This document shows, in pieces, positions 3,254 to 64,000 of a stretch of 64,000 nt of DNA (position 1 is the first letter of the stretch; each line of letters begins with the position of its first letter). The position numbers and the translations under genes are program-made. This DNA comes from an uncultured bacterium. Lineage in GTDB: Bacteria; Patescibacteriota; Minisyncoccia; Phycocordibacterales; PALSA-1337. Location: the NCBI GenBank assembly GCA_903839725.1, contig CAIMDG010000002.1, forward strand, positions 305,117 through 369,116. The letters are read 5' to 3'. The notes under the pieces are model-generated. The model ran no database searches and was not told where the DNA came from. It saw nothing but the letters and a program-made list of their open reading frames with translations.

Positions 3254-4012
3254 TCAGAAGAACAATAAAATCAACGCCAAAAGTAGAAGTCCAACATCAA
3301 CTCGTCTACGAACCTTTATAACAAGTGTATCTTTCTTGATATACAGTAGCCCCCATACTATAAACACTGAGCCGATTAATGTTAGGGGAGTAATTTCTAT
3401 AGCTAAAATACAACCGATAATAAGTGATGCAGCTGATGCAATACGAGCAAAAGTATCGCCGAGAATTATTGGTGTTGTCTTTTTATAACCAGTATCAACT
3501 GATGTGTCAGCAATGTCGTGTAGCGTTTCTCGGCCAAAGATTATTAAAGCGGTAGTGACGAATGGAATCAGAACGGTATCTATGTGTGCACCAAGCGTCA
3601 AAGGTATAAGTATCGGACTTGCTGATGTCACAGTAACAAGAGTTACAGATAAGAGTGGTACTCTGCGTGCTTCAGAATACAAAGCTCCAATGAGTGCCAT
3701 ACCAAGTAACAATAATCCCGTTGCCAATTGTTGAAACAAAAGTGTTGTAATCAATGCGCAACATATAACCCAGAACAATAGTAACCATGAAATGTACAAT
3801 TTTGGATTACTACTAGCAAAACTTTTACCTTTTCCTATGTCGTGTGATCTATCACGCCAATCATTTTGAAGCATCGTAACTGCAATTACAAAGAAAAGAG
3901 TTGTGAGGATCAAAGCATGTACAGATATACCAGAATGCTTAAATCCGATAATACCAAGTATTACAATGAGTATACATTCTGGTAAGCGGATAGATTGCAG
4001 TAAACCAATCAT
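3254..4012 (-). CDS. UbiA-family aromatic/isoprenoid prenyltransferase
   Basis: Polytopic membrane protein with NDWRDRSHD (NDxxDxxxD) and a second Asp-rich motif HDIADTSVD. Convergent with and 14 bp from the CrtI-like gene. Confidence 0.65.
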   Translation of the reverse strand: MIGLLQSIRLPECILIVILGIIGFKHSGISVHALILTTLFFVIAVTMLQNDWRDRSHDIGKGKSFASSNPKLYISWLLLFWVICCALITTLLFQQLATGLLLLGMALIGALYSEARRVPLLSVTLVTVTSASPILIPLTLGAHIDTVLIPFVTTALIIFGRETLHDIADTSVDTGYKKTTPIILGDTFARIASAASLIIGCILAIEITPLTLIGSVFIVWGLLYIKKDTLVIKVRRRVDVGLLLLALILLFF

Positions 4013-9184: not shown

Positions 9185-9490
9185 ATGGAAAAAATACCGG
9201 AAAATAACTTCTTCGATTCAAGTACAAGAGAATTTCTCAAAAAGTATGGTCTACAAAAGATTCAGTATAGTTTTTTTGATAAGTTTAGATTTATCATTAC
9301 TGCTGGACTTGGTCTTATATCAGCTCTTGCGTGGGATGAAACACTCAGGGCAATTTTCAATGACTGGTTTCCTGAGATGAGTCATGGATTGAGTAGCCTA
9401 TTGTATGCGACGAGCTTAACAATTCTCGCAACTATCGTTGGTCTGGTGCTTGGTCTTATTTCCAAGAAATCAAAAAATAAGAAAGACTAG
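9185..9490 (+). CDS. small membrane protein (hypothetical)
   Basis: 101 aa with two TM helices. A G8 tract lies 45-50 nt upstream (9134-9141). Confidence 0.45.
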   Translation: MEKIPENNFFDSSTREFLKKYGLQKIQYSFFDKFRFIITAGLGLISALAWDETLRAIFNDWFPEMSHGLSSLLYATSLTILATIVGLVLGLISKKSKNKKD

Positions 9491-10470
9491 AAGTGGTCTC
9501 GTGCACGTACACCACTTTTTTCCATTATTTCAGTCACATCAGCACTCTCTGCTTTATTGAATTGATTGGTGAGCTTCTTTTCTCGGATTGAATGAGCGTC
9601 AAATTCAAGAGTTCCAGGGGTATCATAGAATGTATCCCATTCACGTGAAAAACTTGTACCATGAGTGACGGCATTCAACGCCGCTTCTCCGATATTGGCG
9701 ATAGCTGTTGTATATGAAGCAAGAGGGGATTGTTTGAATTGTTCAGCGTGACTAGCTTCGGCAAGAAATTGACTGTACATCCTCAAACCCAAATCTTCAG
9801 GTGCAAGGTAAATAGTATTATTGACACTATTGTAGTGTTCACGATGTTTCTCTTTGCTGAGCGTTAGTAGTAGTGAATCCTCAGGTTTTTGCCATCGTAT
9901 ATAGGGACTACCACATGCCTTTTCTGTTTTCCAGAGTTCTTCATGGATATGCTTCATAAATATTGGATTTTCAATTACCCAATTTTTGACGTAATTGTAT
10001 TTGTGTCGTAACTGGGAATCTTTTGGAAGTGTGGAAATATAATATTCTATTTGTTTCGTATCCCATTGATTGATTCCTTGCGGCGATGTTATTTTCTTTT
10101 TTTCACACCATTCTGTGATGATATATCGAGCAATATACGCCTTTTCACTTTCAGTAAAAGACTCTTTGCCTGAAAGGGTATTTAAAATATGTTCCGTCTC
10201 TTTGTCGTTGTGACTCCACTTAGAATCTTCTTCAGTTTTGGAAGTTTTATCACGGAATTCATACGCATGATGCATCGCACATGCGGCAATTGTTGCGGCC
10301 ACAGCAATCTGGAGAGATTTGAATAGTTTTTTCCAGGTGGCTGGAGTAACTTCTTTTTCCTGTGTTTGTGGAGTTATATCTAGATTGATAGCCGATTCGA
10401 AATTGGCTACAGTACGTCGTTCCACTGATTGCGGTGTTTCAGGAATTGCTTCGAATGATGATTTTTCCAT
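9487..10470 (-). CDS. single-pass membrane protein, candidate anti-sigma factor by position
   Basis: About 50-aa cytoplasmic N-terminus, TM helix LQIAVAATIAACAM, about 250-aa extracytoplasmic part. Last gene of the sigma-factor operon. Confidence 0.3.
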   Translation of the reverse strand: MEKSSFEAIPETPQSVERRTVANFESAINLDITPQTQEKEVTPATWKKLFKSLQIAVAATIAACAMHHAYEFRDKTSKTEEDSKWSHNDKETEHILNTLSGKESFTESEKAYIARYIITEWCEKKKITSPQGINQWDTKQIEYYISTLPKDSQLRHKYNYVKNWVIENPIFMKHIHEELWKTEKACGSPYIRWQKPEDSLLLTLSKEKHREHYNSVNNTIYLAPEDLGLRMYSQFLAEASHAEQFKQSPLASYTTAIANIGEAALNAVTHGTSFSREWDTFYDTPGTLEFDAHSIREKKLTNQFNKAESADVTEIMEKSGVRARDHF

Positions 10471-15440: not shown

Positions 15441-16335
15441 TATTCAGATTACACAATCAAGTGAAGGCTATGAACTCATCGACTCTGGTGATGGTGAAAA
15501 ACTCGAGCGTTTTGGTGCAGTTGTACTTTCTCGACCAGATCCTCAGGCTTTATGGAAAAAAATGTTGCCTGAGAGTGAATGGAAAAAAGCACATGGTCAT
15601 TTTGGGAGAAGTGGTACACCTCTTCCAGGGAATGAAGAGCGGGGGAGTTGGACACTGAAGACCGATGTTCCAGCAAAATGGGAGATACCTTTTGGTGGGT
15701 TGAAACTATGGATCAAACCAACTGCATTCAAGCATACGGGTCTTTTTCCTGAGCAATCCAAGAATTGGGAGTGGATGGAGGGTAAAATTAAATCTCAAAA
15801 ATTACATCTTAAAAATGATGACATCGAAGTCCTCAACCTTTTTGGCTATACCGGTGGAGCATCACTCGCATGTGCGCAAGCTGGTGCGAAGGTTGTTCAT
15901 ATAGACAGTTCGAAAGCTGCCGTAAATTGGGCACGTGAAAATGCCGAGGCTTCAGGACTCAAGGATTTACCAATTCGTTGGATTATAGAAGATGCACGAT
16001 TGTTTGTTGAACGTGAAATAAAGCGAGGAAGGAAATATGATGCCATTCTCATGGATCCCCCAGCATTTGGTCATGGTCCAACTGCAGAATTGTGGAAAAT
16101 TGAAAATAACTTTTTGGAACTTATTGAAAATTGTATGAAATTGCTCAAAGATGCACCAGTATTCTTTTTGATCAATGGATATTCTGCCGGATATTCAGCA
16201 ATTGCGTATGAAAATAATTTACTTGAATTGAAAGAGAAGTATGGAGGTAGTATTGAAATAGGGGAGTTGGCTATCGAAGAAACCAAGAATAAGCGTTTGT
16301 TACCATCTGGTATTTTTGCAAGGTGGTCAGCTTAA
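15406..16335 (+). CDS. class I SAM-dependent (rRNA) methyltransferase, RlmI/RlmK-like
   Basis: LNLFGYTGGASLACAQAGAKVVHIDSS (motif I) and ILMDPPAFG (motif IV). Confidence 0.6.
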   Translation: MIVQHHSMKTSNIQITQSSEGYELIDSGDGEKLERFGAVVLSRPDPQALWKKMLPESEWKKAHGHFGRSGTPLPGNEERGSWTLKTDVPAKWEIPFGGLKLWIKPTAFKHTGLFPEQSKNWEWMEGKIKSQKLHLKNDDIEVLNLFGYTGGASLACAQAGAKVVHIDSSKAAVNWARENAEASGLKDLPIRWIIEDARLFVEREIKRGRKYDAILMDPPAFGHGPTAELWKIENNFLELIENCMKLLKDAPVFFLINGYSAGYSAIAYENNLLELKEKYGGSIEIGELAIEETKNKRLLPSGIFARWSA

Positions 16336-20488: not shown

Positions 20489-20584
20489 CGATGCAAATAC
20501 GCAAATGTATGCGAATGACACGAATACATCGCACAGCTTCTTGGATTTATTCGCGTCATTCGTGTTCATTCGTAATTTGCATCG
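20489..20584. repeat. iteron-built palindromic element, copy A (between nusG and rplK)
   Basis: Arms GATGCAAATACGCAAATGTATGCGAATGACaCGAATA / TATTCGCGTCATTCGtgtTCATTcGtAATTTGCATCG around a variable centre. Each arm is made of tandem NNGCRAAT octamers. Copies also at 54351-54457 and 61309-61415. Confidence 0.7.
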
Positions 20585-20626
20585 GCACCTTGTATAAACC
20601 ATTAAGTTAGTATAATATCCATTATC

Positions 20627-22688: not shown

Positions 22689-23546
22689 ATGAAGCCTTCT
22701 GGCGCAAAAATAATTGTTGCCTATGTACCGGTATTACATGAAGGTTACATACGTTTTTTTAGTTCCCATACAGACGCCCAAAGACTTTTCTTATTGGGTC
22801 CAGAAATTATCAAAGATTTCAAGCCTCTTGTAAAAGATATACGGGCAATTTCGCCAGAGCTCATAAAAACAGCGATAGGTTCGTTGGGTTATTTCAAAGA
22901 AATTATTGTTACTAGTGCTTCAGAATTGGGGTCACTTAATGACAATGCTACACAGATTGTTATGCCAGATGAAGATGTTATGCATGAATTGCAAGCGAAG
23001 TATTTTCCTGAGGCAACAGTTACGTATCACTCGACTTTTCTTCGTTGGGATAAGCACAAATCTTTTGAACAAAAAGCAGTGGAAGCCGATCAACTGATTT
23101 CTAGCGCTGAATTTGATAAGAAAATGATAGGAGCCCTCAAGGACGAAGCGCAGAAGAGTAGTGACTTTTGGAGACAAATCGGTGCTGCGGTCATCAAGGA
23201 TGGAAAAGTTATTATGCAGGTACACAATTCGGCTGTTCCTGATGAACATATCCATTATACCGAGGGCGATCCGCGTTCAGATTTCAGCAAAGGAGTTAAT
23301 GTTGATTTCTCATTATTTTTCCATTGTGAGGCACAGCTTGTTGCACGAGCTGCCAAAGAGGGGGTCTCTCTCCAAGGTGCTGAGATGTACGTGACTACAT
23401 TCCCGTGTCCGACATGTGCAAAACTTGTAGCGTATTCTGGTATTAAAAAGATGTACTATGCTGATGGATATGGTGTTCTCGACGGGGAACGTGTACTCAA
23501 AAGTCAGGGAGTTGAGATTGTTTTTGTAAAGACTGATTCAAATTAA
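22689..23546 (+). CDS. CMP/dCMP deaminase-family protein with about 140-aa N-terminal extension
   Basis: HCEAQ and PCPTCA zinc-binding motifs of the cytidine/deoxycytidylate deaminase fold in the C-terminal half. Confidence 0.65.
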   Translation: MKPSGAKIIVAYVPVLHEGYIRFFSSHTDAQRLFLLGPEIIKDFKPLVKDIRAISPELIKTAIGSLGYFKEIIVTSASELGSLNDNATQIVMPDEDVMHELQAKYFPEATVTYHSTFLRWDKHKSFEQKAVEADQLISSAEFDKKMIGALKDEAQKSSDFWRQIGAAVIKDGKVIMQVHNSAVPDEHIHYTEGDPRSDFSKGVNVDFSLFFHCEAQLVARAAKEGVSLQGAEMYVTTFPCPTCAKLVAYSGIKKMYYADGYGVLDGERVLKSQGVEIVFVKTDSN

Positions 23547-23601: not shown

Positions 23602-24201
23602 TCAAGACATGCGATCCTGGATGAGGGCCTGTTCTTCAAGGGGAAGAGCCTCAAATGGCGTGCCCGTCCGGATTTTTTCGTAAATGATGGCACGAGCCAC
23701 ACCAATAGCTTCTTCAGCCGGTGTCTTGCAGAAGGGTGATTCGACGCGGCCGGTTCCGTCAGGCACCATCATGTGAATGTGGAGATGGCGAATCGTTCCC
23801 GATGACATGGTCGCATCACCGTCACGCGAGAGAATACCACGGTAAGTGAAGTTGAACATCACGGGCAGTATATTCATGGCTACCCAGTATTCCAGTTGTT
23901 CCGCAGTCGTTAATTCCCGACTGTCCATCACGTGGCGTAACGGGATCAGCAGAAAATGGAGACGCGTAAATTTTTCTGGAGGACTGCAGTATTGGACCCG
24001 CCAATACTTCAATGAAGGAATTTCAACTGGCGTATTATATGTCCAATCGGGATTGCACAAAGCACAACGACCTGCCAATGCATCTTCAACAGCCTTGCAA
24101 TGCTGGCTGTATTTTCTGGACCGAGCGATGCACGCAAGCGTTACCGAATCGGTTATTCCTGGAATGATGAGAACACTGTTCTCTAACATGGTATGAAGCA
24201 C
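23602..24201 (-). CDS. HIT-superfamily protein (histidine triad)
   Basis: IRHLHIHMMVPDG (HxHxHxx) plus upstream Cys pair RCALCN. Confidence 0.55.
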   Translation of the reverse strand: MLHTMLENSVLIIPGITDSVTLACIARSRKYSQHCKAVEDALAGRCALCNPDWTYNTPVEIPSLKYWRVQYCSPPEKFTRLHFLLIPLRHVMDSRELTTAEQLEYWVAMNILPVMFNFTYRGILSRDGDATMSSGTIRHLHIHMMVPDGTGRVESPFCKTPAEEAIGVARAIIYEKIRTGTPFEALPLEEQALIQDRMS

Positions 24202-25780: not shown

Positions 25781-26203
25781 ATGAAGATTAATGTGAAAAA
25801 ACTTCATCCTGAAGCAAAATTGCCCGCATATGCTCATCCTGGTGATGCTGGTATGGATTTTTTTGCACTAGAAAAGACAACGATAGCCCCAAAAGAAAGA
25901 TTGATTGTAAAAACAGGAATTTCTATTGAGATACCTGAAGGATATGTTGGGTTGGTGTGGGATAAAAGTGGTATACCTCTAAAATATGGATTAAAAACTA
26001 TTGGTGGTGTGATTGATGCAGGATATCGTGGGGAAGTTGGGATCGGTCTTTTGAATACCAGTGATCAAGAATATATATTTGAAGCAGGTCATAAGATTGC
26101 CCAAATGCTCATCCAGAAAGTTGAACAAGTTGAATTGATTGAAGTTGCTGAACTTACCGAAACACAACGTGGTACAGGGGGATTTGGTAGTACAGGGAAG
26201 TAG
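25781..26203 (+). CDS. dut: dUTP diphosphatase
   Basis: AHPGDAGMDFFA, GLVWDKSG, ...RGTGGFGSTGK motif 5. ORF-track frame trimmed to ATG 25781. Confidence 0.85.
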   Translation: MKINVKKLHPEAKLPAYAHPGDAGMDFFALEKTTIAPKERLIVKTGISIEIPEGYVGLVWDKSGIPLKYGLKTIGGVIDAGYRGEVGIGLLNTSDQEYIFEAGHKIAQMLIQKVEQVELIEVAELTETQRGTGGFGSTGK

Positions 26204-26208
26204 TAATA

Positions 26209-26730
26209 TTGATAGCAGGCCGACCTCCTCGGCGCATAACTTACCGTAGTGCGCCGAGGATGGGTAGGGCAGTCCAGGCCGTGCTCGCCCTCCAGCGATC
26301 AGCGCCCGCAGGCGACGGAGGTAAGTTATGCGCGCGAGGAGGTCTTGAGTATGTTGACAGAATAAATTCAAAGGAGTACATTATGGCCTGCGGGATAAAT
26401 CGACAAAGAAATTACTATCATTGTCGGAAACACATAGTTGCGAGCACACTACGAGCATTCACATGCTGCGTGGTATCAGGGCAGGAAATGCCCTCGGTTA
26501 CTGAGGTGTCCATGTGTGTCCAGTCATTACTGGTTCGCAAATTGGGCATTCGAAGTTTCCTATCACTGACCAGACGTCACTTAACGTTCTTGCTTCGGAG
26601 GTTTACCTCCAACACCGTTATTCGCTGACAGGTCAGTGCTAATTTTCTCCGTGAAAGCGGGGATTGCTAAGGAAACCATAGGAAAGGGGCGTCGCACATG
26701 GCTGTGCGACGCCCTGATTTTTTTATGTTG
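26209..26730 (+). ncRNA. GC-rich ORF-free island: 24-bp-stem GC-rich hairpin (26222-26344) plus promoter-to-terminator unit (26354-26726), candidate structured RNA, identity unassigned
   Basis: Sharp GC rise in an AT-rich genome. All three + frames open, no minus-strand ORFs. TTGACA-17-TACATT at 26354-26382. Terminator GGGCGTCGCACAtggcTGTGCGACGCCC plus T7 at 26687-26726. Confidence 0.3.
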
Positions 26731-26870
26731 TACAGACTGGTTTTTGTTTTTGACGGTGATACTATGTGTACATGCTCGTCAATTATATGTTTAGTACATG
26801 GTCTAGTTTTATATAGTTTTTATATACGATATGCAGATGTTCTGTATGATTATTTCTAATTTTTAATCCC

Positions 26871-28064
26871 ATGAAAGATACTCAAATAAAAAAACTTATT
26901 GAAACAGAAAAGAAACGCCAGAAAAAAGTTATCAATCTGATTGCTTCAGAAAATTATGTTTCAAAAGATGTGCTCGAAGCTCTTGGTTCTGAACTTACGA
27001 ATAAGTATGCAGAAGGGTATCCTGGCAAGCGTTATTACGGAGGTAATGAAATTATTGATAAGATTGAATCTCTTTGTATTGAACGTGCACTCAAGTTATT
27101 CAAGCTTTCTCCACAGGAATGGCATGTGAATGCCCAGGCGCTTTCTGGCTCACCAGCAAACTTGGCTGTGTATACGGCACTTATTCCTCAAGGAGGAAAA
27201 ATTATGGGTATGTCTCTCGATCAGGGAGGTCACCTTACGCATGGTCACAAAGTTTCAGCTACAGGAAAATTCTGGTTACAAGTTCCATATGGTGTCGATA
27301 AGGACACTGAAGTCTTGAACTACAAACATCTTCACGATATTGCCATGAAGGAAAAGCCTGCAATTATCGTAGCGGGTTACACTGCATATCCACGTCGTAT
27401 CGATTGGGCAAAGCTTCGCGAAATTGCTACAGCCGCAGGAGCATTACTCATGGTTGATATGTCTCACATCTCTGGACTTGTTGCAGGTGGAGTATATCCA
27501 GCACCATTCCCATATGCGGATATTGTTACGACAACAACTCATAAGACACTTCGTGGACCTCGTTCAGCACTCATTTTTGCTCGTGTAGACGAACGTGATT
27601 TGGGTAAGAAGATAGATCGTGCTGTATTCCCTGGTCTTCAGGGTGGTCCTCATGAAAATCAAATTGCAGGAATTGCAATCACACTCAAAGAAGCAATGTC
27701 ACCAGCTTTCAAGAAATATGCGGCGCAGGTTGTGAAGAATGCTGCTGTGCTTGCAAGTGAACTCAATAATTATGGTTGGAAAATTATTTCAGGAGGGACA
27801 GATTCACATCTTGTCCTTGTTGATACATGGATGGGTGGGGCCAAGAATGAAAAGGGGGCAGGAGCAGTCACTGGTAAAGATGCATCTGATCGTCTCGAGA
27901 AGGCTGGTATTATTGTGAATAAAAATGCGATTCCATTTGATGCACGTCCACCGGCAGATCCATCAGGTATTCGTCTCGGTAGTGCCGCTGAAACAACTCG
28001 TGGTGCAAAAGAAAAAGATTTCAAAGCAATTGCAAAGAAAATCGACGCTATTTTGAGGAAGTAG
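26871..28064 (+). CDS. glyA: serine hydroxymethyltransferase
   Basis: NLIASENYVS..., PLP-lysine region VTTTTHKTLRGPR. 397 aa. Confidence 0.9.
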   Translation: MKDTQIKKLIETEKKRQKKVINLIASENYVSKDVLEALGSELTNKYAEGYPGKRYYGGNEIIDKIESLCIERALKLFKLSPQEWHVNAQALSGSPANLAVYTALIPQGGKIMGMSLDQGGHLTHGHKVSATGKFWLQVPYGVDKDTEVLNYKHLHDIAMKEKPAIIVAGYTAYPRRIDWAKLREIATAAGALLMVDMSHISGLVAGGVYPAPFPYADIVTTTTHKTLRGPRSALIFARVDERDLGKKIDRAVFPGLQGGPHENQIAGIAITLKEAMSPAFKKYAAQVVKNAAVLASELNNYGWKIISGGTDSHLVLVDTWMGGAKNEKGAGAVTGKDASDRLEKAGIIVNKNAIPFDARPPADPSGIRLGSAAETTRGAKEKDFKAIAKKIDAILRK

Positions 28065-31031: not shown

Positions 31032-34000
31032 ATGTCAGTAGAAATTCCAGACAAAAAACCAAAATCACCTAATGCGGAGCGTGAAGAACGTATTCTTTTG
31101 AGTTGGAAAGAAAAAGATATTTTCAATAAAACTCTAACTAAACCTGCACCCAAAGGGGAATTCGTTTTTTTTGAAGGTCCTCCAACTGCCAATGGTCGCC
31201 CCGGAATCCATCACCTCGAAGCGCGTGCATTCAAGGATGCAATACCTCGTTACAAAACGATGCAAGGTTTTTATGTGCGTCGCAAAGGAGGTTGGGATAC
31301 TCACGGTTTGCCCGTTGAACTCCAAGTAGAAAAAGAGCTTGGTCTCAAATCAAAAAAGGAAATCGAGAATTACGGTATCGCCGCATTCAATGATAAGTGT
31401 AAAGAAAGTGTTTGGAAATATGTCCATGAATGGGAAGACTTCACCAATCGCATGGGATACTGGGTTGATCTCAAGAATCCATACATCACCTATAAGTCTC
31501 AATATATTGAAGCAGTATGGAATGTCATCAAGACTGCAGATGATAAGAAGTTACTCTATAAAGACTACAAAGTAGTACCATGGTGTCCGCGTTGTGGAAC
31601 AGGATTATCTTCACATGAATTGGCACAAGGGTATGAAGAAGTAAAGGATTTGACGTTGTACGTTAAATTCAAAATTAAATCTCAAATTTCAAATCTCAAA
31701 AATGAAGCACAGGGAGATACATATTTTTTGGCATGGACAACAACACCGTGGACGCTTCCGGGAAATGTGGCATTGGCAGTAGGGAAGGATATTGAATATG
31801 TGAAGGTTAAAACAGGTGAATTACTTTCACCAGAAGCTTCTTCACCTAAAGGTGGTAAAGGTGTCGATATGGAAGCGGCATTTATTCGCGGTAATAATAA
31901 GGATGATATTTATTTAATTCTTGCAAAAGAGCGTTTGAGTGTACTCAAAGATGTTCAGCATGAAATTGTTGAAACAATAAAGGGCTCTGACCTTGTCGGA
32001 CTTTCCTATGAGCCACTATTCTCATTCTTGAAAGACAGCGTGACAGGGGAGCAGAAAGATAAACTTTCACATGCATTCAAAGTATATGCGGGTGATTTCG
32101 TCACCACAACCGACGGTACAGGTATTGTGCACATCGCCCCAATGTATGGACAAGACGATTTTGAGCTCGGTACAAAAAATAATTTGCCAAAATATCATCT
32201 CGTAAATGATGACGGCACGTTCAAAAAAGAATGTGGCTTTTTGGCTGGTAGATTCGTCAAAGAGAAAGATGCTAATGGTAAACCAACCTTGGATGTTGAT
32301 GTGGTTAATTATCTCAAAGAAAAAGGATTATTCTTTGCTCAAGAAAATTATAAGCATACATATCCTCATTGCTGGCGCTGTCATACACCACTTATCTATT
32401 TTGCACGTGATTCATGGTATATCCGCATGTCATCACTTCGAGATGAGCTCGTTAAACAAAATGAAGGTATTCATTGGGAACCTGAACATATCAAAGAAGG
32501 ACGTTTCGGTGAATGGCTCCGCGAAATCAAGGATTGGGCAATTTCACGTGAGCGTTATTGGGGAACACCATTGCCAATCTGGTCATGTGAAAAATGTCAT
32601 GCACGAAAAGTTGTTGGTTCAGTCGATGATCTCAAACGTCCTGCAAAGAATACGTATTATGTGATGAGACATGGTGAGTCGACAGGTAATATTGAAAGGG
32701 TTTTGAATAGTAGTATAACCGCGCAAGTTTCTCTTACTGATACTGGTAAAGAGCAAGTAAAAAAGTCCGCGCAAGCTTTGAGAAAGATATCATTTGACTA
32801 CATAATCGCTTCTCCTCTTGTGCGCACCCAAGAAACAGCACATATTGTAAAAAATGAACTCGGTCTTACTGATAGTCAGATGATTACGGATGAACGTCTA
32901 GTCGAACTCGGTCTTGGTCCATGGAATGGAAAACCTGTAGATGATTTTCTTGATGCGTATCCAGTCGCTAGTCGCTTTGAGAAGACTATTGAAGGTGTAG
33001 AATCGTATGTTGATCTCAAAAAACGCGTTGGCGGTTTTCTCTATGAGTGTGAGAAAAAATATGAGGGCAAAACTATTCTTATCGTTACTCATGGTTCTCC
33101 TGCTACATTACTTGTGGCTGTGACACAGGGAATGAATCATGAACAAACTATTTCCTACGAAGAAGAACATTTCCTCGGTAATGCTGAAGTTCGTCCTCTT
33201 CAATATACCGTTTTTCCACATAATACTGAGTATGAACTCGATCTCCACCGACCATTCATCGATGAGGTAACCTTTGCATGTTCGTGTGGAGGAGTAATGA
33301 AGCGTGCAAAAGAAGTTATGGACGTCTGGTTTGATTCTGGAGCTATGCCATTTGCGCAAGATCACGAGATGAAATCTCAAATCTCAAAAATCAAATCTCA
33401 AAACTTCTTTTCAAAATTATTCGGTAAGGAATCAAAGATGTTATATCCTGCCGATTTTATTTCAGAGGCAATTGACCAGACTCGTGGATGGTTCTATACA
33501 CTTCATGCTATTGGTGCAATCATGGGGAAGGGTAAGGCGTACAGGAATGTTATTTGTCTCGGACATATTCTCGATGCTGAGGGTAAGAAGATGTCCAAGT
33601 CTGTAGGTAATGTGGTGAATCCATGGGACATGATGGATCTTTACGGTGCTGATGCATTACGTTTTTGGATGTATTCGGTCAATCAGCCAGGTGACTCAAA
33701 GAATTTTGATCAAAAAACAGTTGATGAGGTGGTGAAGAAAGTATTTAACTTGGCTTCAAATGTTCTTTCGTTCTATAAGATGTACGAAGATACATCTCAA
33801 AAATCAAATCTCAAAAATCAAATCAAATCGCAAAACGTACTGGATCAATGGATCATCACACGATTGGATGAAGTTATTGAGACGGTCACAAAAGGACTTG
33901 ATGGGTATGTATTCTTGGAACCTACACGTACTATCCGTGATTTTATCGCTGATCTATCACAATGGTATCTTCGCCGTTCACGCGATAGATTCAAGGGTGA

Positions 34001-34619
34001 TGATGAAGCTGATAAACAAGCAGCACTAGAAACAACAAAGTATGTATTGATAACTTTGGCAAAAGTTATGGCACCATTCACACCGTTCTTTGCTGAATTT
34101 ATGTATACAGAAACTGGTGGTGAAAAGGAAAGTGTTCACCTCGAGGAGTGGCCAGAAGCAGGGAAGGTTGATGCGAAACTTATTGCCGACATGAATATTG
34201 TTCGAAGTCTTTCTTCGAAGGGTCTTGAGGCAAGAATGAAGGCAAAAATAAATGTGAGACAGCCACTCGCAAATCTTAAATCTCAAATTTCAAATCTCAA
34301 AGATTTAGCACCGGAACTTATTGATCTCATAAAGGATGAAGTAAATGTAAAAAATATCGTATTTGAAGGAGCACTTACAACTGAAGTCGAGTTGGATACA
34401 ACTATCACTCCAGAGCTCAAAGAAGAAGGTGATGTTCGTGAACTCATCCGTTCTATTCAAGATTTGAGAAAAGAAAAAGGTCTGTCTGTAGGAGATAAAG
34501 TATCTATTACTGTCCCAGAATCAAATCGTGCCTTGGTTGAAAAATATGGCCATGAAATCAAGAAGACAACAGGTCTCATCGATATCAAGGTCGGTGATAG
34601 CTTGAGTATCATCGCGTAA
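31032..34619 (+). CDS. ileS: isoleucine--tRNA ligase carrying an inserted histidine-phosphatase domain and four short in-frame repeat insertions
   Basis: Canonical IleRS blocks: PPTANGRPGIHH (HIGH), AWTTTPWTLPGN, WGTPLPIWSCEKCH, DLHRPFIDEV..CSCGG, DVWFDSG, QTRGWFYTL, KMSKSVGN. 1195 aa is about 150-250 aa longer than typical. Confidence 0.92.
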   Translation: MSVEIPDKKPKSPNAEREERILLSWKEKDIFNKTLTKPAPKGEFVFFEGPPTANGRPGIHHLEARAFKDAIPRYKTMQGFYVRRKGGWDTHGLPVELQVEKELGLKSKKEIENYGIAAFNDKCKESVWKYVHEWEDFTNRMGYWVDLKNPYITYKSQYIEAVWNVIKTADDKKLLYKDYKVVPWCPRCGTGLSSHELAQGYEEVKDLTLYVKFKIKSQISNLKNEAQGDTYFLAWTTTPWTLPGNVALAVGKDIEYVKVKTGELLSPEASSPKGGKGVDMEAAFIRGNNKDDIYLILAKERLSVLKDVQHEIVETIKGSDLVGLSYEPLFSFLKDSVTGEQKDKLSHAFKVYAGDFVTTTDGTGIVHIAPMYGQDDFELGTKNNLPKYHLVNDDGTFKKECGFLAGRFVKEKDANGKPTLDVDVVNYLKEKGLFFAQENYKHTYPHCWRCHTPLIYFARDSWYIRMSSLRDELVKQNEGIHWEPEHIKEGRFGEWLREIKDWAISRERYWGTPLPIWSCEKCHARKVVGSVDDLKRPAKNTYYVMRHGESTGNIERVLNSSITAQVSLTDTGKEQVKKSAQALRKISFDYIIASPLVRTQETAHIVKNELGLTDSQMITDERLVELGLGPWNGKPVDDFLDAYPVASRFEKTIEGVESYVDLKKRVGGFLYECEKKYEGKTILIVTHGSPATLLVAVTQGMNHEQTISYEEEHFLGNAEVRPLQYTVFPHNTEYELDLHRPFIDEVTFACSCGGVMKRAKEVMDVWFDSGAMPFAQDHEMKSQISKIKSQNFFSKLFGKESKMLYPADFISEAIDQTRGWFYTLHAIGAIMGKGKAYRNVICLGHILDAEGKKMSKSVGNVVNPWDMMDLYGADALRFWMYSVNQPGDSKNFDQKTVDEVVKKVFNLASNVLSFYKMYEDTSQKSNLKNQIKSQNVLDQWIITRLDEVIETVTKGLDGYVFLEPTRTIRDFIADLSQWYLRRSRDRFKGDDEADKQAALETTKYVLITLAKVMAPFTPFFAEFMYTETGGEKESVHLEEWPEAGKVDAKLIADMNIVRSLSSKGLEARMKAKINVRQPLANLKSQISNLKDLAPELIDLIKDEVNVKNIVFEGALTTEVELDTTITPELKEEGDVRELIRSIQDLRKEKGLSVGDKVSITVPESNRALVEKYGHEIKKTTGLIDIKVGDSLSIIA
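31677..31703 (+). repeat. in-frame A-rich repeat copy 1 in ileS (encodes KSQISNLKN)
   Basis: AAATCTCAAATTTCAAATCTCAAAAAT. Confidence 0.6.
32655..33239 (+). other. histidine phosphatase (phosphoglycerate-mutase superfamily, branch 1) domain embedded in IleRS
   Basis: YYVMRHGESTGN (RHG catalytic His), SPLVRTQETA, DERLVELGLGPWNG, ILIVTHGSP (second His). Flanked by IleRS residues ...DDLKRPAKNT and EYELDLHRPF... Confidence 0.75.
33372..33404 (+). repeat. in-frame A-rich repeat copy 2 in ileS (KSQISKIKSQN)
   Basis: AAATCTCAAATCTCAAAAATCAAATCTCAAAAC. Confidence 0.6.
33793..33836 (+). repeat. in-frame A-rich repeat copy 3 in ileS (SQKSNLKNQIKSQN)
   Basis: CATCTCAAAAATCAAATCTCAAAAATCAAATCAAATCGCAAAAC. 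Confidence 0.6.
34271..34302 (+). repeat. in-frame A-rich repeat copy 4 in ileS (NLKSQISNLKD)
   Basis: AAATCTTAAATCTCAAATTTCAAATCTCAAAG. Confidence 0.6.
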
Positions 34620-46960: not shown

Positions 46961-47045
46961 TAAATTACAAATTAAAAATAACAAATCCAAAAATCAAGCA
47001 TCATAATATCAAAGATATGCAATTGTTTATTTTTGAGATTTGATA
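46961..47045. repeat. A-rich repeat family, forward copy then reverse-complement copy (rpsF-ssb intergenic)
   Basis: TAAATTACAAATTAAAAATAACAAATCCAAAAATCAAGC ... TTTTTGAGATTTGATATTTGAGTTTTGAATTTT. Confidence 0.45.
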
Positions 47046-47070
47046 TTTGAGTTTTGAATTTTATTACACT

Positions 47071-50954: not shown

Positions 50955-53228
50955 TTAGAGTTCAGACTCTTCCTGAACTGGTTCGCTCGGACCTTGCTGT
51001 TCTATTCCTGTACCAACACCACCGATGATGTCACGAGGCTTTGAACCATTTGCAGGACCGATGACACCATGACCTTCGAGTAAGTCCATAAGTTTTGCTG
51101 CACGAGAGTAGCCAATACCGAGTTTACGTTGCAAGAATGAGGTGGAAGCCTTGTTCGCTTCTATCACAGCTTCACGTGCTGGTTCATAGAGCTCATCTTC
51201 TTCATCGAGAGAGTCGCTACTATTCATCGCATCGAATGCTGCCATTGCGCCAGCTTCGGTAGGAGTGAGGTTGATTTCATTCATGATCTCATCTTTGTAT
51301 TCAGCCGCGAGATATTTCACAACGTCTTTCACTTCCTTTTCACTGATGTATGCAGATTGCAAACGCACAGGTTTTGACATTTCACCACCGAGGTAGAGCA
51401 TGTCTCCGGCTCCGAGAAGGTTTTCTGCACCTGGCTGATCGAGAATGGTACGAGAATCGATCTGTGATGATACTTGAAGAGCAACACGAGTAGGGATGTT
51501 TGCTTTGATAAGACCGGTAATAACATTCACACTCGGACGCTGAGTTGAGATGATGAGGTGAATACCGACGGCACGACTCATTTGAGCAAGACGAACGATA
51601 GCTGATTCCAATTCACGAGGATATGTCTGCATAATATCCGCCAATTCATCAATAACGATAACGATGTACGGCATTGTTTCAGGAAGCTTCACATCATCTG
51701 TTGGGCTGCCATCATTCTTCCATTTTTCAAGCGCTGGGGCCAAGATGTTCTTGTGATATGAATCAATATCACGAGCAGAATTCTGTTCGAGTATGTCATA
51801 ACGGCGACTCATCTCCTTGGCACCCCATTTGAGGGCAAGGATGGCCTTCTTGGGGTCAGTGATGACCGGTGTGAGCAGGTGAGGGGTTTTGTTGTAGAGT
51901 GTCAATTCAACACGCTTTGGGTCAATCATGATGAACTTAAGGTTCTCTGGGGAGTTGCGATACAAGAGAGAGGTAATGATGGCGTGAATGGTCACAGATT
52001 TTCCTGAACCAGTAGTACCGGCGATCAGCATGTGAGGAGCTTTGGCAAGATTGGCAAAATGAGCTTTTCCGGCGATGTCTTTTCCGAGAGAAGTGAGGAG
52101 TGGTTTTTCTGAACCCTGATAATCTTGTGAGGCAAGAAGGGTAGCGAGACCGACAGTAGTCTTTGAAGTGTTCGGTACTTCGATACCTACGAGTGACTTG
52201 CCAGGTATTGGAGCTTCGATACGAATAGGGTGAGCAGCGAGGGCAAGAGCAAGATTACTACTCAATCCGGTGATACGAGAAAGTTTAACTCCTTCAGCTG
52301 GTTTCAATGCATAACGAGTCACTGATGGACCAATCGATATCTCATCCATTTCAACGGTAACGCCGAAGTTTTGGAAAGTTCGTTTGATGATGTTTGCGTT
52401 GGCTTTGATATCTCCAGTTTCAGGTTTGCCACGATCCTTCTCAAGTAATGAAAGTGGGGGAGGGGTGAACGGTTTGAGATGAGGTACAACAACTGATGAT
52501 GCGAATGCACTTTCTTCAGCATCACTAAAATCAAGGGTGCCTTTTTTCTTTGCTTTTTCAGCTGCACGTTTCTTTTCTTCGGCAGCGACACGTTGTAGCT
52601 CGATCTGTTTTGCAGAGAGAGTCTCTGTTTCAGATGAAGCCATTCCCGCAACAGCTTTTTCGACTGCGGCTTCTTCGTATGCATCCATCTTTCCATCTTT
52701 AGCTTTAGGTATTTCTTTTTTGTCTTTCTTTAGTTTTTTCCAGATCGCAATATCGTCAAAAGTAAAATACAAATTGAACGTCATGATCACTGAGATGATG
52801 AGAAGTGCTACAAGGAGACATGTTGTCGCGGGAGTATCGAGCATCTTGATGAGAGGGACGGCGATCCATCGTCCAATAACTCCTCCTTCATTGTAGGAAG
52901 CGATGTGTATTGTGCCGAGACCAGCGATGAAGAAAAGTATTACACCGATAATTTTTGTTGCTTCAAGCTTCTTTTTAATTCCCTGCAAGAATGAGATACC
53001 GAGCATCAGGAAAACAACTGGTATAAGGAAATATCCGATACCAAATAATCGAGTAAAAAAGGTATATCCGTATGCCCCTATTGGTCCCGCTTTTCCGAAC
53101 GCAGCTAATAATGATAATAGTGTTAATAAAAATGAGAGAATTGCGAGAATTGCCTGAATCGTTTCATCGCGCATATTGTCCCAAAATCGCATTTTTTCTG
53201 TAATATCTAGATCTTTTTTCTTTGCCAT
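50955..53228 (-). CDS. ftsK: DNA translocase FtsK/SpoIIIE
   Basis: Four N-terminal TM helices, linker, motor domain with HMLIAGTTGSGKSV (Walker A), C-terminal gamma-domain winged helix. Confidence 0.9.
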   Translation of the reverse strand: MAKKKDLDITEKMRFWDNMRDETIQAILAILSFLLTLLSLLAAFGKAGPIGAYGYTFFTRLFGIGYFLIPVVFLMLGISFLQGIKKKLEATKIIGVILFFIAGLGTIHIASYNEGGVIGRWIAVPLIKMLDTPATTCLLVALLIISVIMTFNLYFTFDDIAIWKKLKKDKKEIPKAKDGKMDAYEEAAVEKAVAGMASSETETLSAKQIELQRVAAEEKKRAAEKAKKKGTLDFSDAEESAFASSVVVPHLKPFTPPPLSLLEKDRGKPETGDIKANANIIKRTFQNFGVTVEMDEISIGPSVTRYALKPAEGVKLSRITGLSSNLALALAAHPIRIEAPIPGKSLVGIEVPNTSKTTVGLATLLASQDYQGSEKPLLTSLGKDIAGKAHFANLAKAPHMLIAGTTGSGKSVTIHAIITSLLYRNSPENLKFIMIDPKRVELTLYNKTPHLLTPVITDPKKAILALKWGAKEMSRRYDILEQNSARDIDSYHKNILAPALEKWKNDGSPTDDVKLPETMPYIVIVIDELADIMQTYPRELESAIVRLAQMSRAVGIHLIISTQRPSVNVITGLIKANIPTRVALQVSSQIDSRTILDQPGAENLLGAGDMLYLGGEMSKPVRLQSAYISEKEVKDVVKYLAAEYKDEIMNEINLTPTEAGAMAAFDAMNSSDSLDEEDELYEPAREAVIEANKASTSFLQRKLGIGYSRAAKLMDLLEGHGVIGPANGSKPRDIIGGVGTGIEQQGPSEPVQEESEL

Positions 53229-54331: not shown

Positions 54332-54350
54332 GATTCGAGATATAAAGAAT

Positions 54351-54457
54351 CGATGCAAATCTGCAAATGATCGCGAATGACGCGAATGCGTCGCATCCTA
54401 CTCTAGATTCAAGTGAGTTTATTCGCGTCATTCGCATCCATTTGCGTATTTGCATCG
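54351..54457. repeat. iteron-built palindromic element, copy B
   Basis: CGATGCAAATCTGCAAATGATCGCGAATGACGCGAATG ... TTATTCGCGTCATTCGCATCCATTTGCGTATTTGCATCG. Confidence 0.7.
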
Positions 54458-54973
54458 CATATTTTGGGACTTCAATAAAAATAGGGTTTTTTCTTGACTT
54501 TTGACCCTAAATGGCTTAATATAGTCCTATTATCAATAGTAACTAAATAGAGCCATAATTTGCCTAAATCTCAGCATATTTGTGTTATCCACATGTCCTT
54601 TTGCCAGAGTGTGTAATTTCGCGTTATAATGCTTTGTATCGAGTGCGATTCTTGCCTACCCAGGTTCGAACTGCATTCGTCCCAGAGCAATAGTGCTTCG
54701 GGGAGTACGAACTTTGACAAATCAATAAAACGTCAAGTTCGATCGTTCATTATTGAATGATTGATTTCAGACATATTCGAAATATCTTTATTGATATGGA
54801 GATAGTTTGTTTTCAGTTTATCAATAATTTGTTTTGCCACAATATCTTGTATGTGCGTGTCGATACAACGTGCGTTCAAGGTGTGGAATTATTATTAGTA
54901 TTACAAAATTGCATTCATTCTCTATCTTTATTAGTAAACAGAGGACATGCATTAAATTACAAAAAAAATTCGT

Positions 54974-61308: not shown

Positions 61309-61415
61309 GATGCAAATACGCGAATGTATGCGAATGACGCGAATAGAACGCACAGGAATCGAAAGTCGGATGCGACGTATTCGCGTCATTCGCATACATT
61401 TGCGTATTTACATCG
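61309..61415. repeat. iteron-built palindromic element, copy C (upstream of rplJ, divergent region)
   Basis: GATGCAAATACGCGAATGTATGCGAATGACGCGAATAG ... GTATTCGCGTCATTCGCATACATTTGCGTATTTACATCG. Confidence 0.7.
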
Positions 61416-61458
61416 CTATTTATTTGAAATAATTCTTTATAATGATAGACTACTTCCC

Positions 61459-62983: not shown

Positions 62984-63121
62984 AATTCCAAATAACAAGC
63001 ACCAAATGACAAATAAATTACAAACTACAAATTTCAACTTCTAAACCTTGTTAAATGGGTTTGGAAATTATGATTTTTGTATTGGTTATTATTTGTCATT
63101 TGGTGCTTGTTATTTGGAATT
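62984..63121. repeat. perfect 33-bp inverted repeat with 72-nt spacer
   Basis: AATTCCAAATAACAAGCACCAAATGACAAATAA (62984-63016) and its exact reverse complement (63089-63121). Confidence 0.8.
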
Positions 63122-63166
63122 TCTTGTCCACAGACTATCCACATGTAAGATAATAATAGAAAGGTA

Positions 63167-63194
63167 TTGACTTCTTTTCACATATCCGTATACT
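63167..63194 (+). promoter_or_regulatory. sigma70-type promoter TTGACT-16-TATACT upstream of the 23S rRNA leader
   Basis: Consensus hexamers. A short hairpin plus T-run (GCCGCTcaatgaaGCGGTTTTTT, 63271-63296) lies about 75 nt downstream. Confidence 0.45.
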
Positions 63195-63579
63195 TATCCT
63201 CACTACCGAATGAATACAAGAAATACCCAATCACAGCGGCCATAGCCACACCCCGTCATTGGAGTGTTAAGCATGCCGCTCAATGAAGCGGTTTTTTCTT
63301 TTCAGAACGACAGAAACTTTGAAAACCACATATACTCAATCAAGTAAGGTTTGTGTGTGATGAGTAATTGCACACAAACAAAACGTACACGTCTCTCCGC
63401 CAACCGGCGGAAAGGGATGTGTACGTCATCCGCATTCGTTCGGGTCGAATGAATGCGGGCAGTTCATACGCTGTGAAGTGTATGAGCGAAGTAATGTAGG
63501 TATTTCTCGAAAGAGAAAATAGCATTCTGATGCAAATCAGAGTGCAAGAAAACAAAATGCGGTTTTTAAATTTCCTAAT

Positions 63580-64000
63580 AGGAAATTAAGGGCGTATGGT
63601 GGATGCCTTGGCTTCATGGAGGCGATGAAAGACGCGGCGTGGCGGCGATACGCTTCGGGGAGGTGCCGAGCAACCTTTGATCCGAAGATGTCTGAATGGG
63701 GAAACCCCACCGAGTAAAACTTGGTGATCTAACACTTGATGTTAGAAGCGTACCCTGGGAAGTAAAACATTTCAGTACCAGGTGGAAAATAAACAAATAT
63801 GCATTCCGTGAGTAGCGGCGAGCGAAAGCGGAGATAGTCTAAACTTATTGTAGCAATACAATGAGGGTTGCAAGGTAGAGACGTACCATTTATGGTAGAG
63901 AAGTTACAAATCTTTTTATTAATCGAATGAGTTGGAAAGCTCAGCCCCAGAAGGTGATAGCCCTGTAAGTGAAAATAAAAAGACTTCTTTGTTTCTATTC
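63580..64000 (+). rRNA. rrl: 23S ribosomal RNA, 5' portion (continues beyond window)
   Basis: GGTGGATGCCTTGGC, GGCGATGAAAGACGCGG, GAATGGGGAAACCCC, AGTAGCGGCGAGCGAAAGCGGAG align with the universally conserved 23S 5' domain I. Confidence 0.92.

Follow-up and report, generated by a model that had tools for sequence, protein, structure and literature searches.

The CPR/Patescibacteria combine tiny genomes with a small number of known regulators, and to our knowledge their non-coding RNAs are almost entirely unexplored. In gamma-proteobacteria, 6S RNA (ssrS) is located upstream of the folate gene ygfA, and the locus described here, between dut and glyA in a 64 kb stretch of DNA (the window) from an uncultured Taylorbacteria-like bacterium, would resemble it as a gene of the stable-RNA type, with a promoter of sigma-70 consensus and a neighbour in one-carbon metabolism. 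With the ZTP (pfl) and THF riboswitches it shares a position 5' of glyA, a folate and thymidylate context and a terminator that separates RNA from gene. As a non-coding promoter-to-terminator unit ending in a Rho-independent terminator it also resembles the genes of trans-acting sRNAs, and as in these a conserved single-stranded, pyrimidine-rich segment, GCUAAUUUUCUCC, precedes the 3' hairpins. A further likeness is to the orphan non-coding RNAs (raiA motif RNA, OLE, ROOL and GOLLD), with which it has in common a GC-rich, ORF-free island (here in a genome of 40% GC), multiple helices with invariant blocks and covarying stems, a promoter and terminator of its own, and an unassigned role. A search of the literature returned no description of an RNA between dut and glyA.

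We consider it probable that this GC-rich island holds two unrelated features, a strain-specific hairpin at the 3' end of dut and a stand-alone gene for a structured non-coding RNA of about 335 nt. The original prediction had read the island as an independently transcribed structured RNA. This holds in that a conserved, structured, non-coding + strand element with a conserved promoter and terminator is present; the hairpin has to be excluded from it, no named family fits, and the option of a glyA leader is disfavoured.

Genes, promoter, terminator and hairpin at the locus

The window has a GC content of about 40%, and its glyA is 71–91% identical to glyA of MAGs labelled Candidatus Taylorbacteria, Paceibacterota or Patescibacteria. 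Both the RNA unit and the GC-rich hairpin lie between dut (25781–26203, + strand), the upstream neighbour encoding a dUTPase of 140 aa (Pfam PF00692, E = 9.5e-29), and glyA (26871–28064, + strand), the downstream neighbour encoding a serine hydroxymethyltransferase (SHMT) of 397 aa (PF00464). dut is likewise located upstream of the locus in the related genomes L086, L085, L001 and L089. The surrounding cluster encodes a cytidylyltransferase-like protein, dCMP deaminase, a HIT-like protein, thyA, dut and glyA, and the version found in relatives additionally has tmk, dcd and DHFR. It is a cluster for making dTMP, through dCMP deaminase, thyA, dut and glyA, with the three added genes contributing in the relatives. 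Two neighbours had been misread: the gene at 22689–23546 (+), taken for folD, encodes a protein with a dCMP or cytidine deaminase domain (PF00383), and a "first" GC-rich island, thought to be free of ORFs (23602–24201, minus strand), encodes the conserved HIT-like protein. Its frame of 199 aa includes an HLHIH histidine-triad-like motif and shows an identity of 88% in L086 and of 50–61% in L032, L064 and L054; it has no Pfam match and was left uncalled as a gene in L086.

Among 36 genes checked in the window, including those at 3254–4012 (-), 9487–10470 (-), 13711, 28841, 41782 and 50955–53228 (-), 35 lack any Shine-Dalgarno-like motif, and in many window genes a TGnTAnAAT extended -10 box ends 6–8 nt before the ATG. 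Together these observations suggest that the genome runs largely on leaderless mRNAs. Such Shine-Dalgarno-free mRNAs would leave little room for conventional regulation through the 5' UTR.

Several other features were recorded elsewhere in the window. The 23S rRNA gene starts at 63576 (63576–64000 within the window); the 2.5 kb ahead of it contain protein-like ORFs and no 16S gene, so that the rRNA genes seem to be unlinked, and the 64 kb hold no tRNA gene. Just upstream of the 23S rRNA gene (63120–63300, +) is a second small promoter-to-terminator unit, with TTGACT-16-TATACT at 63167–63194, an RNA of about 100 nt, a terminator at 63275–63292 followed by a T-run, and no Rfam match; TTGTCCACA and CTATCCACA, which are DnaA-box-like and in the opposite orientation, lie ahead of it. 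A palindromic repeat of about 100 nt with GATGCAAATACGCGAATG... arms is present in three copies (20489–20586, 54344–54464 and 61309–61416); the arms are 77–95% alike, each copy forms a long hairpin, and the whole looks like a dispersed repeat family. The repeat motif AAATCTCAAA/AAATTTCAAA (families D1 and D2) recurs between genes at many places, in either strand, at 15788, 21052, 31675, 33371–33404, 33790, 34263–34310, 47026–47061, 61079 and 63014.

The promoter of the predicted RNA, P1, consists of TTGACA (26354–26359), a 17-nt spacer and TACATT (26377–26382) on the + strand, exactly as originally predicted. The pattern TTGACW-N17-TASWTW has this one match in 64 kb, against 0.21 expected. In L086, L085 and L001 the -35 hexamer, the spacing and TA[CG]ATT are invariant and occur at the same position, and a conserved GGAG directly precedes the -10 hexamer. 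Transcription is predicted to start at about 26389–26391. At the other end lies an intrinsic terminator (26686–26724, +) with a GC-rich stem at 26686–26715, a UGGC loop and U7 at 26718–26724; the GC hairpin and T7 of the original description are real, with a stem of 13 bp and not 12 bp. The terminator is found in all four genomes that have the unit, with stems of 12–14 bp, U7–8 and changes of C-G to U-A. From P1, a full-consensus sigma-70-type promoter, the RNA would thus extend over about 335 nt (26390–26724, +), both ends being predicted from promoter and terminator, and the strong terminator would also insulate the separate glyA promoter further downstream. The island has a GC content of 0.47–0.56, compared with about 0.40 for the window, and once hairpin and terminator are removed, the RNA body still folds more stably than shuffled versions (z = -3.2).

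The GC-rich hairpin at the 3' end of dut (26222–26344, no strand assigned) is formed by inverted repeats I1 and I3 and appears in the MFE fold. Its 24-bp stem joins arms at 26222–26245 and 26320–26344, with one bulged base (G26334), around an interior of 74 nt with about 70% GC. The stem and its single bulge had been described correctly, the 3' arm starting at 26320 and not at 26319. An alternative local pairing of the 5' arm joins 26226–26236 with 26250–26260. The hairpin has no U-tract, lies upstream of the -35 hexamer of P1, and was found in three assemblies that are 100% identical (the window, L083 and L084). It is absent from L086, L085, L001 and L089: after dut, L086 has an 8-bp stem (GGTCGAGG/CCTCGACC), L085 a different one of about 20 bp and L089 another of 21 bp, and L001 has none. 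Because it precedes the promoter and no relative has it, the hairpin is not part of the RNA, and we regard it, on these comparisons, as a strain-specific feature separate from the RNA gene. Pieces of it, GGGTAGG and CCTCG...ATAACTT, reappear in the post-dut stems of relatives, and the comparison suggests a variable dut 3' hairpin elaborated in the window by inverted duplication. The segment 26222–26344 would then be an overgrown hairpin at the 3' end of dut, a stem of the terminator or stabiliser type. A perfect 9-nt complement, CCCGCAGGC/GCCUGCGGG, links the hairpin interior (26305–26313) with the extreme 5' end of the predicted RNA (26386–26394); any relevance would be limited to transcripts reading through from dut, and chance may account for it.

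Conservation and structure of the RNA

Covariance-model searches against Rfam, covering ZTP, THF, 6S, tmRNA, RNase P and SRP as the original prediction had advised, placed the RNA in no known family. At the gathering thresholds of Rfam 15, the sole match in the whole window was the start of the 23S rRNA; at E <= 10, none of these six families or any other relevant one matched within 26100–26900, and 27 related loci likewise gave nothing relevant. The suggested ZTP or THF riboswitch thus falls away (RF01750 and RF01831 unmatched by cmscan in the window and the homologous loci), as does a 6S-like RNA, since RF00013 remained unmatched at E <= 10 and the fold is a series of hairpins rather than a rod. 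For RNase P and SRP RNA, reading of the sequence also revealed no conserved P4 or domain IV motifs. ARAGORN found no tRNA or tmRNA gene in the window and RF00023 was unmatched, in agreement with the earlier remark that a tRNA-like end and a tmRNA tag frame are missing.

Homologues were sought among 80 glyA loci from GTDB species, in a metagenome scan and on the contigs of the closest glyA proteins. Of the GTDB-species loci only L001 (glyA 91%) has the unit. The metagenome scan yielded one contig, L082 (the same as L087), with a copy truncated at its 5' end, and the contigs of the closest glyA proteins added L085 and L086, the latter being the full version of L082. The unit is thus kept at the same position in three other genomes, whose glyA proteins are 91–96% identical in amino acid sequence, and the RNA is 87% (L086), 75% (L085) and 75% (L001) identical to that of the window; conservation in relatives, one of the checks proposed at the outset, is borne out. 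A covariance model of the core, R1, recovered exactly the window, L086, L085 and L001 among 90 sources, with no distant copies in these and a single match in the window. In the protein database only a handful of glyA clusters reach >=88% identity, so the clade itself is small.

Pairwise identity of the core is 82–91%, compared with 54–79% at third codon positions of dut and glyA, and a block of 31 nt is identical in the window, L086 and L001. This difference indicates that the promoter-to-terminator unit is under purifying selection. In L089, L002 and L094 the promoter and terminator are kept and the core of about 280 nt is missing, so that the core is dispensable in neighbouring species; in these three and in L006, about 60–70 nt separate promoter and terminator.

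MFE, centroid and consensus predictions give six serial helices, H1 to H6, followed by the terminator, all on the + strand. H1 (26401–26426) is a CGACAA/UUGUCG hairpin. H2 (26448–26474) lies within the 31-nt block identical in the window, L086 and L001, and in L085 changes a U.G pair to C-G and an A-U pair to G.U. H3 (26479–26493), GGGCA/UGCCC in the window, is GGAGC/GCUCC in L086, with three double-sided changes, and GGGGCA/UGCCCC in L001. H4 (26496–26560) is a long helix made irregular by internal loops of UU/UU and GA/GA, and its inner hairpin (H4b), CCAGU/ACUGG, appears as CCGGU/ACCGG in L086 and as CCGU/ACGG in L085. H5 (26564–26638) is a long helix with an invariant base, CACUGACC/GGUCAGUG, and a covarying apex found in four complementary versions (GGAGG/CCUCC, GGGG/CCCC, GGGAG/CUCCC and GGGGG/CCCCC). 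The conserved pyrimidine-rich linker GCUAAUUUUCUCC (26638–26662) leads into H6, whose CUCCG/CGGGG pairing also covaries, with CCCUC/GAGGG as the alternative version.

Checked helix by helix, every helix pairs fully in all four genomes. About ten double-sided compensatory changes, a count that rests on manual realignment, fall in H3, H4b, the H5 apex, H6 and the terminator. Of the cells in the consensus structure, 96% form standard pairs, compared with 34–43% when the partners are slid by 1–3 columns. A strict count by alignment column gives just three pairs changed on both sides, a number reached by 18 of 500 shuffles; this low count is partly explained by the misalignment of H3 of L086 by MAFFT. 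The proposed covariation check therefore came out consistent, not deep, in that helices are kept by compensatory changes in four genomes, and as these are four related sequences the depth is shallow and the support moderate. The + strand is taken as the RNA strand because on the opposite strand several of the conserved G.U pairs would turn into A.C. The comparison marks H2, H4 and H5 as the sequence-constrained core. At the level of comparative sequence analysis, then, the conserved non-coding sequence, the conserved and covarying helices, the conservation of promoter and terminator, and the strand are all established.

The island might also derive from a GC-rich element, mobile or foreign, that was inserted between dut and glyA, and be its remnant or its cargo without function for the host. 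The region is GC-richer than the genome, the core behaves as an indel of about 280 nt among close relatives, and short contigs end near the core. Against this, hairpin and core are single-copy in the window (for a 22-nt piece of the hairpin arm, no second copy was found at <=3 mismatches), no transposase, integrase or terminal repeats flank them, and collections of phages, plasmids and viruses gave no match: blastn against phages and plasmids returned nothing, and exact-pattern scans of viral contigs returned one chance 17-mer only (L081). As purifying selection and compensatory changes also speak against a functionless insert, we hold such an origin to be highly improbable.

Coding potential and relation to glyA

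A frame of 139 aa with a TTG start is open at 26209–26628, and an AGGAG stands 6 nt before ATG 26383, from which a frame of 81 aa could be read, so that a protein-coding gene was considered. Among 5.8 billion proteins the 139-aa frame matches only itself, in two short ENA contigs with 100% identity to the window, and it has no Pfam family, in line with its original description as a product of base composition. ATG 26383 is missing in L001 and L085, and in L086 the frame meets a stop after 34 codons. The homologues are separated by 1-nt indels, the longest + strand ORF across the unit in L001 is at most 41 aa, and a reading frame conserved across the unit was found in none of the homologues compared. 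Furthermore, ATG 26383 abuts the -10 hexamer and would therefore precede the start of the transcript. The AGGAG owes its conservation to the promoter and does not serve as a ribosome-binding site, because the genome hardly uses Shine-Dalgarno sequences (1 of 36 genes); the same count, 35 of 36 genes without one, undermines both this role and the idea that the CCUCC motifs act as anti-Shine-Dalgarno decoys. The chance of a protein-coding gene is in our view negligible, and the 139-aa ORF called at this locus in public assemblies is spurious.

The relation to glyA needs closer consideration. An extended -10 promoter of glyA's own, TGATACTAT (26757–26765, +), lies downstream of the terminator, and essentially all relatives, whether or not they have the RNA, show TGnTAnnAT/TGnTAnAAT ahead of glyA; in L001, L002 and L094 it stands 6–7 nt before the ATG, a leaderless distance. 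As a cis-acting leader or attenuator of glyA, the unit would respond to a ligand (folate or a nucleotide-cycle metabolite) or a protein that suppresses the terminator and lets the P1 transcript enter glyA. This would fit its place directly before glyA, and on glyA's strand, in each of the four genomes, the recurrence of a unit at this position in many lineages, the thymidylate and folate cluster around it (dCMP deaminase, thyA, dut and glyA) and the terminator between RNA and gene. In truncated folds, the 5' arm of the terminator pairs upstream with 6–12 kcal/mol. Yet before the 3' arm is made, the predicted partner of this 5' arm is a different segment in each genome, no antiterminator helix conserved among the four was found, and an antiterminator was accordingly rejected as a candidate. 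The linker between core and terminator is hypervariable in length and sequence, the short variants keep promoter and terminator without any sensor domain, and neither ZTP, THF nor another riboswitch is matched. The marks of a riboswitch or attenuator are thus missing, there being no conserved competing helix and glyA having a promoter of its own. Since that promoter lies past the terminator and no antiterminator is conserved, an independent RNA gene is favoured over the originally suggested cis-leader for glyA, which we consider unlikely; read-through into glyA could nevertheless have effects.

The features of the unit, a conserved promoter and terminator around a frame-free region with purifying selection and helix-preserving substitutions, are those of non-coding RNA genes in general. 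The RNA gene would give rise to a discrete, stable product that acts in trans, as a riboregulator or RNA–protein scaffold, and not in cis on glyA; H2, H4 and H5 may form its functional surface. As a counterpoint, the RNA is always located directly upstream of glyA, in the same orientation and within the thymidylate-cycle cluster, which a role in cis would predict likewise. The usual occlusion of ribosome-binding sites would be inapplicable, because the mRNAs of the host are mostly leaderless and without Shine-Dalgarno sequences. The 5' end of the thyA mRNA was examined as an antisense target: its complementarity of at least 12 bp was the best in the thymidylate-cycle cluster and second of 48 start regions scanned, and as it is not maintained in L086 and absent in L085 it was judged to be due to chance.

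The same position in other Paceibacteria and described RNAs

Many Paceibacteria have a GC-rich, ORF-free unit just upstream of the glyA promoter, with a strong terminator at its end. Their RNA bodies measure between 60 and about 450 nt, form several groups that are unrelated in sequence, and belong to no Rfam family. Further large ones (200 to about 450 nt) occur in L099 (3560–3930), L019, L009, L018, L011/L013/L021, L003/L005, L008 and L042; L099 and L019 have GCGCCAGRTYCCCGGGCTTATGGG in common, and L009 and L018 have CTCTAATGCA. In the group of L011, L013, L021 and L014 the body is unrelated to that of the window and is likewise conserved and structured. Most bodies share with the window a 3' layout of a long helix, an (A)AUUUYC linker, a C-rich/G-rich hairpin and the terminator. 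Homology of the bodies across lineages is not proven by these likenesses.

The units also share a promoter, in which one to four TGTGGATAAC-like (DnaA-box-like) repeats with a period of about 11 nt precede TTGACA, a 17-nt spacer and (GGnG)TAnnnT. This composite pattern was found in 12 of the 87 distinct glyA-upstream regions, and with 18 matches in the 1.57 Mb of all loci compared, both strands counted, it is nearly specific to the position upstream of glyA. A perfect or near-perfect DnaA-box-like TGTGGATAA(C) abuts the -35 hexamer, often as two to four copies at about 11-nt spacing in one orientation, in L001 (~2101), L003, L005, L006, L008, L023, L042, L085 (~3462) and L092/L094. The window and L086 have lost the DnaA-box-like sequence. 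A replication origin at the locus was considered and dismissed, GC skew being monotonic across the window and DnaA-box-like 9-mers not enriched window-wide.

As part of the preferred reading, the RNA would be a lineage-specific elaboration of an older Paceibacteria transcription unit upstream of glyA, whose promoter is flanked by DnaA-box-like sequences in most relatives; in these, DnaA-type control of the promoter may couple the RNA to replication and dNTP supply. On a broader and rather doubtful reading, the window would show the form taken in one lineage by an RNA gene that is ancient, evolves fast and has been located immediately upstream of glyA throughout Paceibacteria. Its promoter would be of the type found before the 23S rRNA gene of the window, flanked by one to four DnaA-box-like repeats, and the 3' layout of long helix, AUUUY linker, C-rich/G-rich hairpin and terminator would be common to its versions. 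Coupled to replication, such an RNA would regulate the thymidylate and one-carbon cycle, for instance by binding SHMT, ThyA, another enzyme of the cluster or DnaA. If true, an RNA locus before glyA with a DnaA-box promoter would link replication status to nucleotide supply, and the GC-rich intergenic island that recurs in Paceibacteria genomes would be accounted for.

The same data could be explained if only transcription mattered, that is, if a promoter–terminator cassette were selected (for instance to titrate DnaA or to insulate a promoter) around a body of largely free-drifting filler. The DnaA-box-like promoter and the terminator are indeed conserved across lineages, around bodies of about 60 to about 450 nt from unrelated sequence groups. 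However, the body in the clade of the window is under clear purifying selection with compensatory changes in its helices, the unrelated body of L011, L013 and L021 is likewise selected with its helices kept, and the window and L086 retain the RNA after losing the box. We therefore find a cassette with a meaningless body improbable, and return to the structured RNA gene as the preferred reading. Located in a dTMP and one-carbon cluster, this RNA of about 335 nt is a candidate for RNA-based regulation or for an RNA–protein complex.

Set beside the described systems, the RNA departs from each in a different way. Compared with 6S RNA, it is a series of hairpins and not a rod with a central bubble, RF00013 does not match it, and in relatives the RNAs at this position vary in length between 60 and about 450 nt. 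Its size is four to five times that of the ZTP and THF aptamers, neither of which it matches in Rfam; moreover, glyA here follows the terminator with its own promoter, and no terminator/antiterminator switch is conserved. Typical seed-type sRNAs are much shorter and less structured. The orphan RNAs raiA, OLE, ROOL and GOLLD differ from it in sequence and structure, none of these Rfam families being matched, and its distribution is far narrower, covering four species-level lineages with a core gained or lost among close relatives. We regard it as a real non-coding RNA candidate, previously undescribed and narrow in its distribution.
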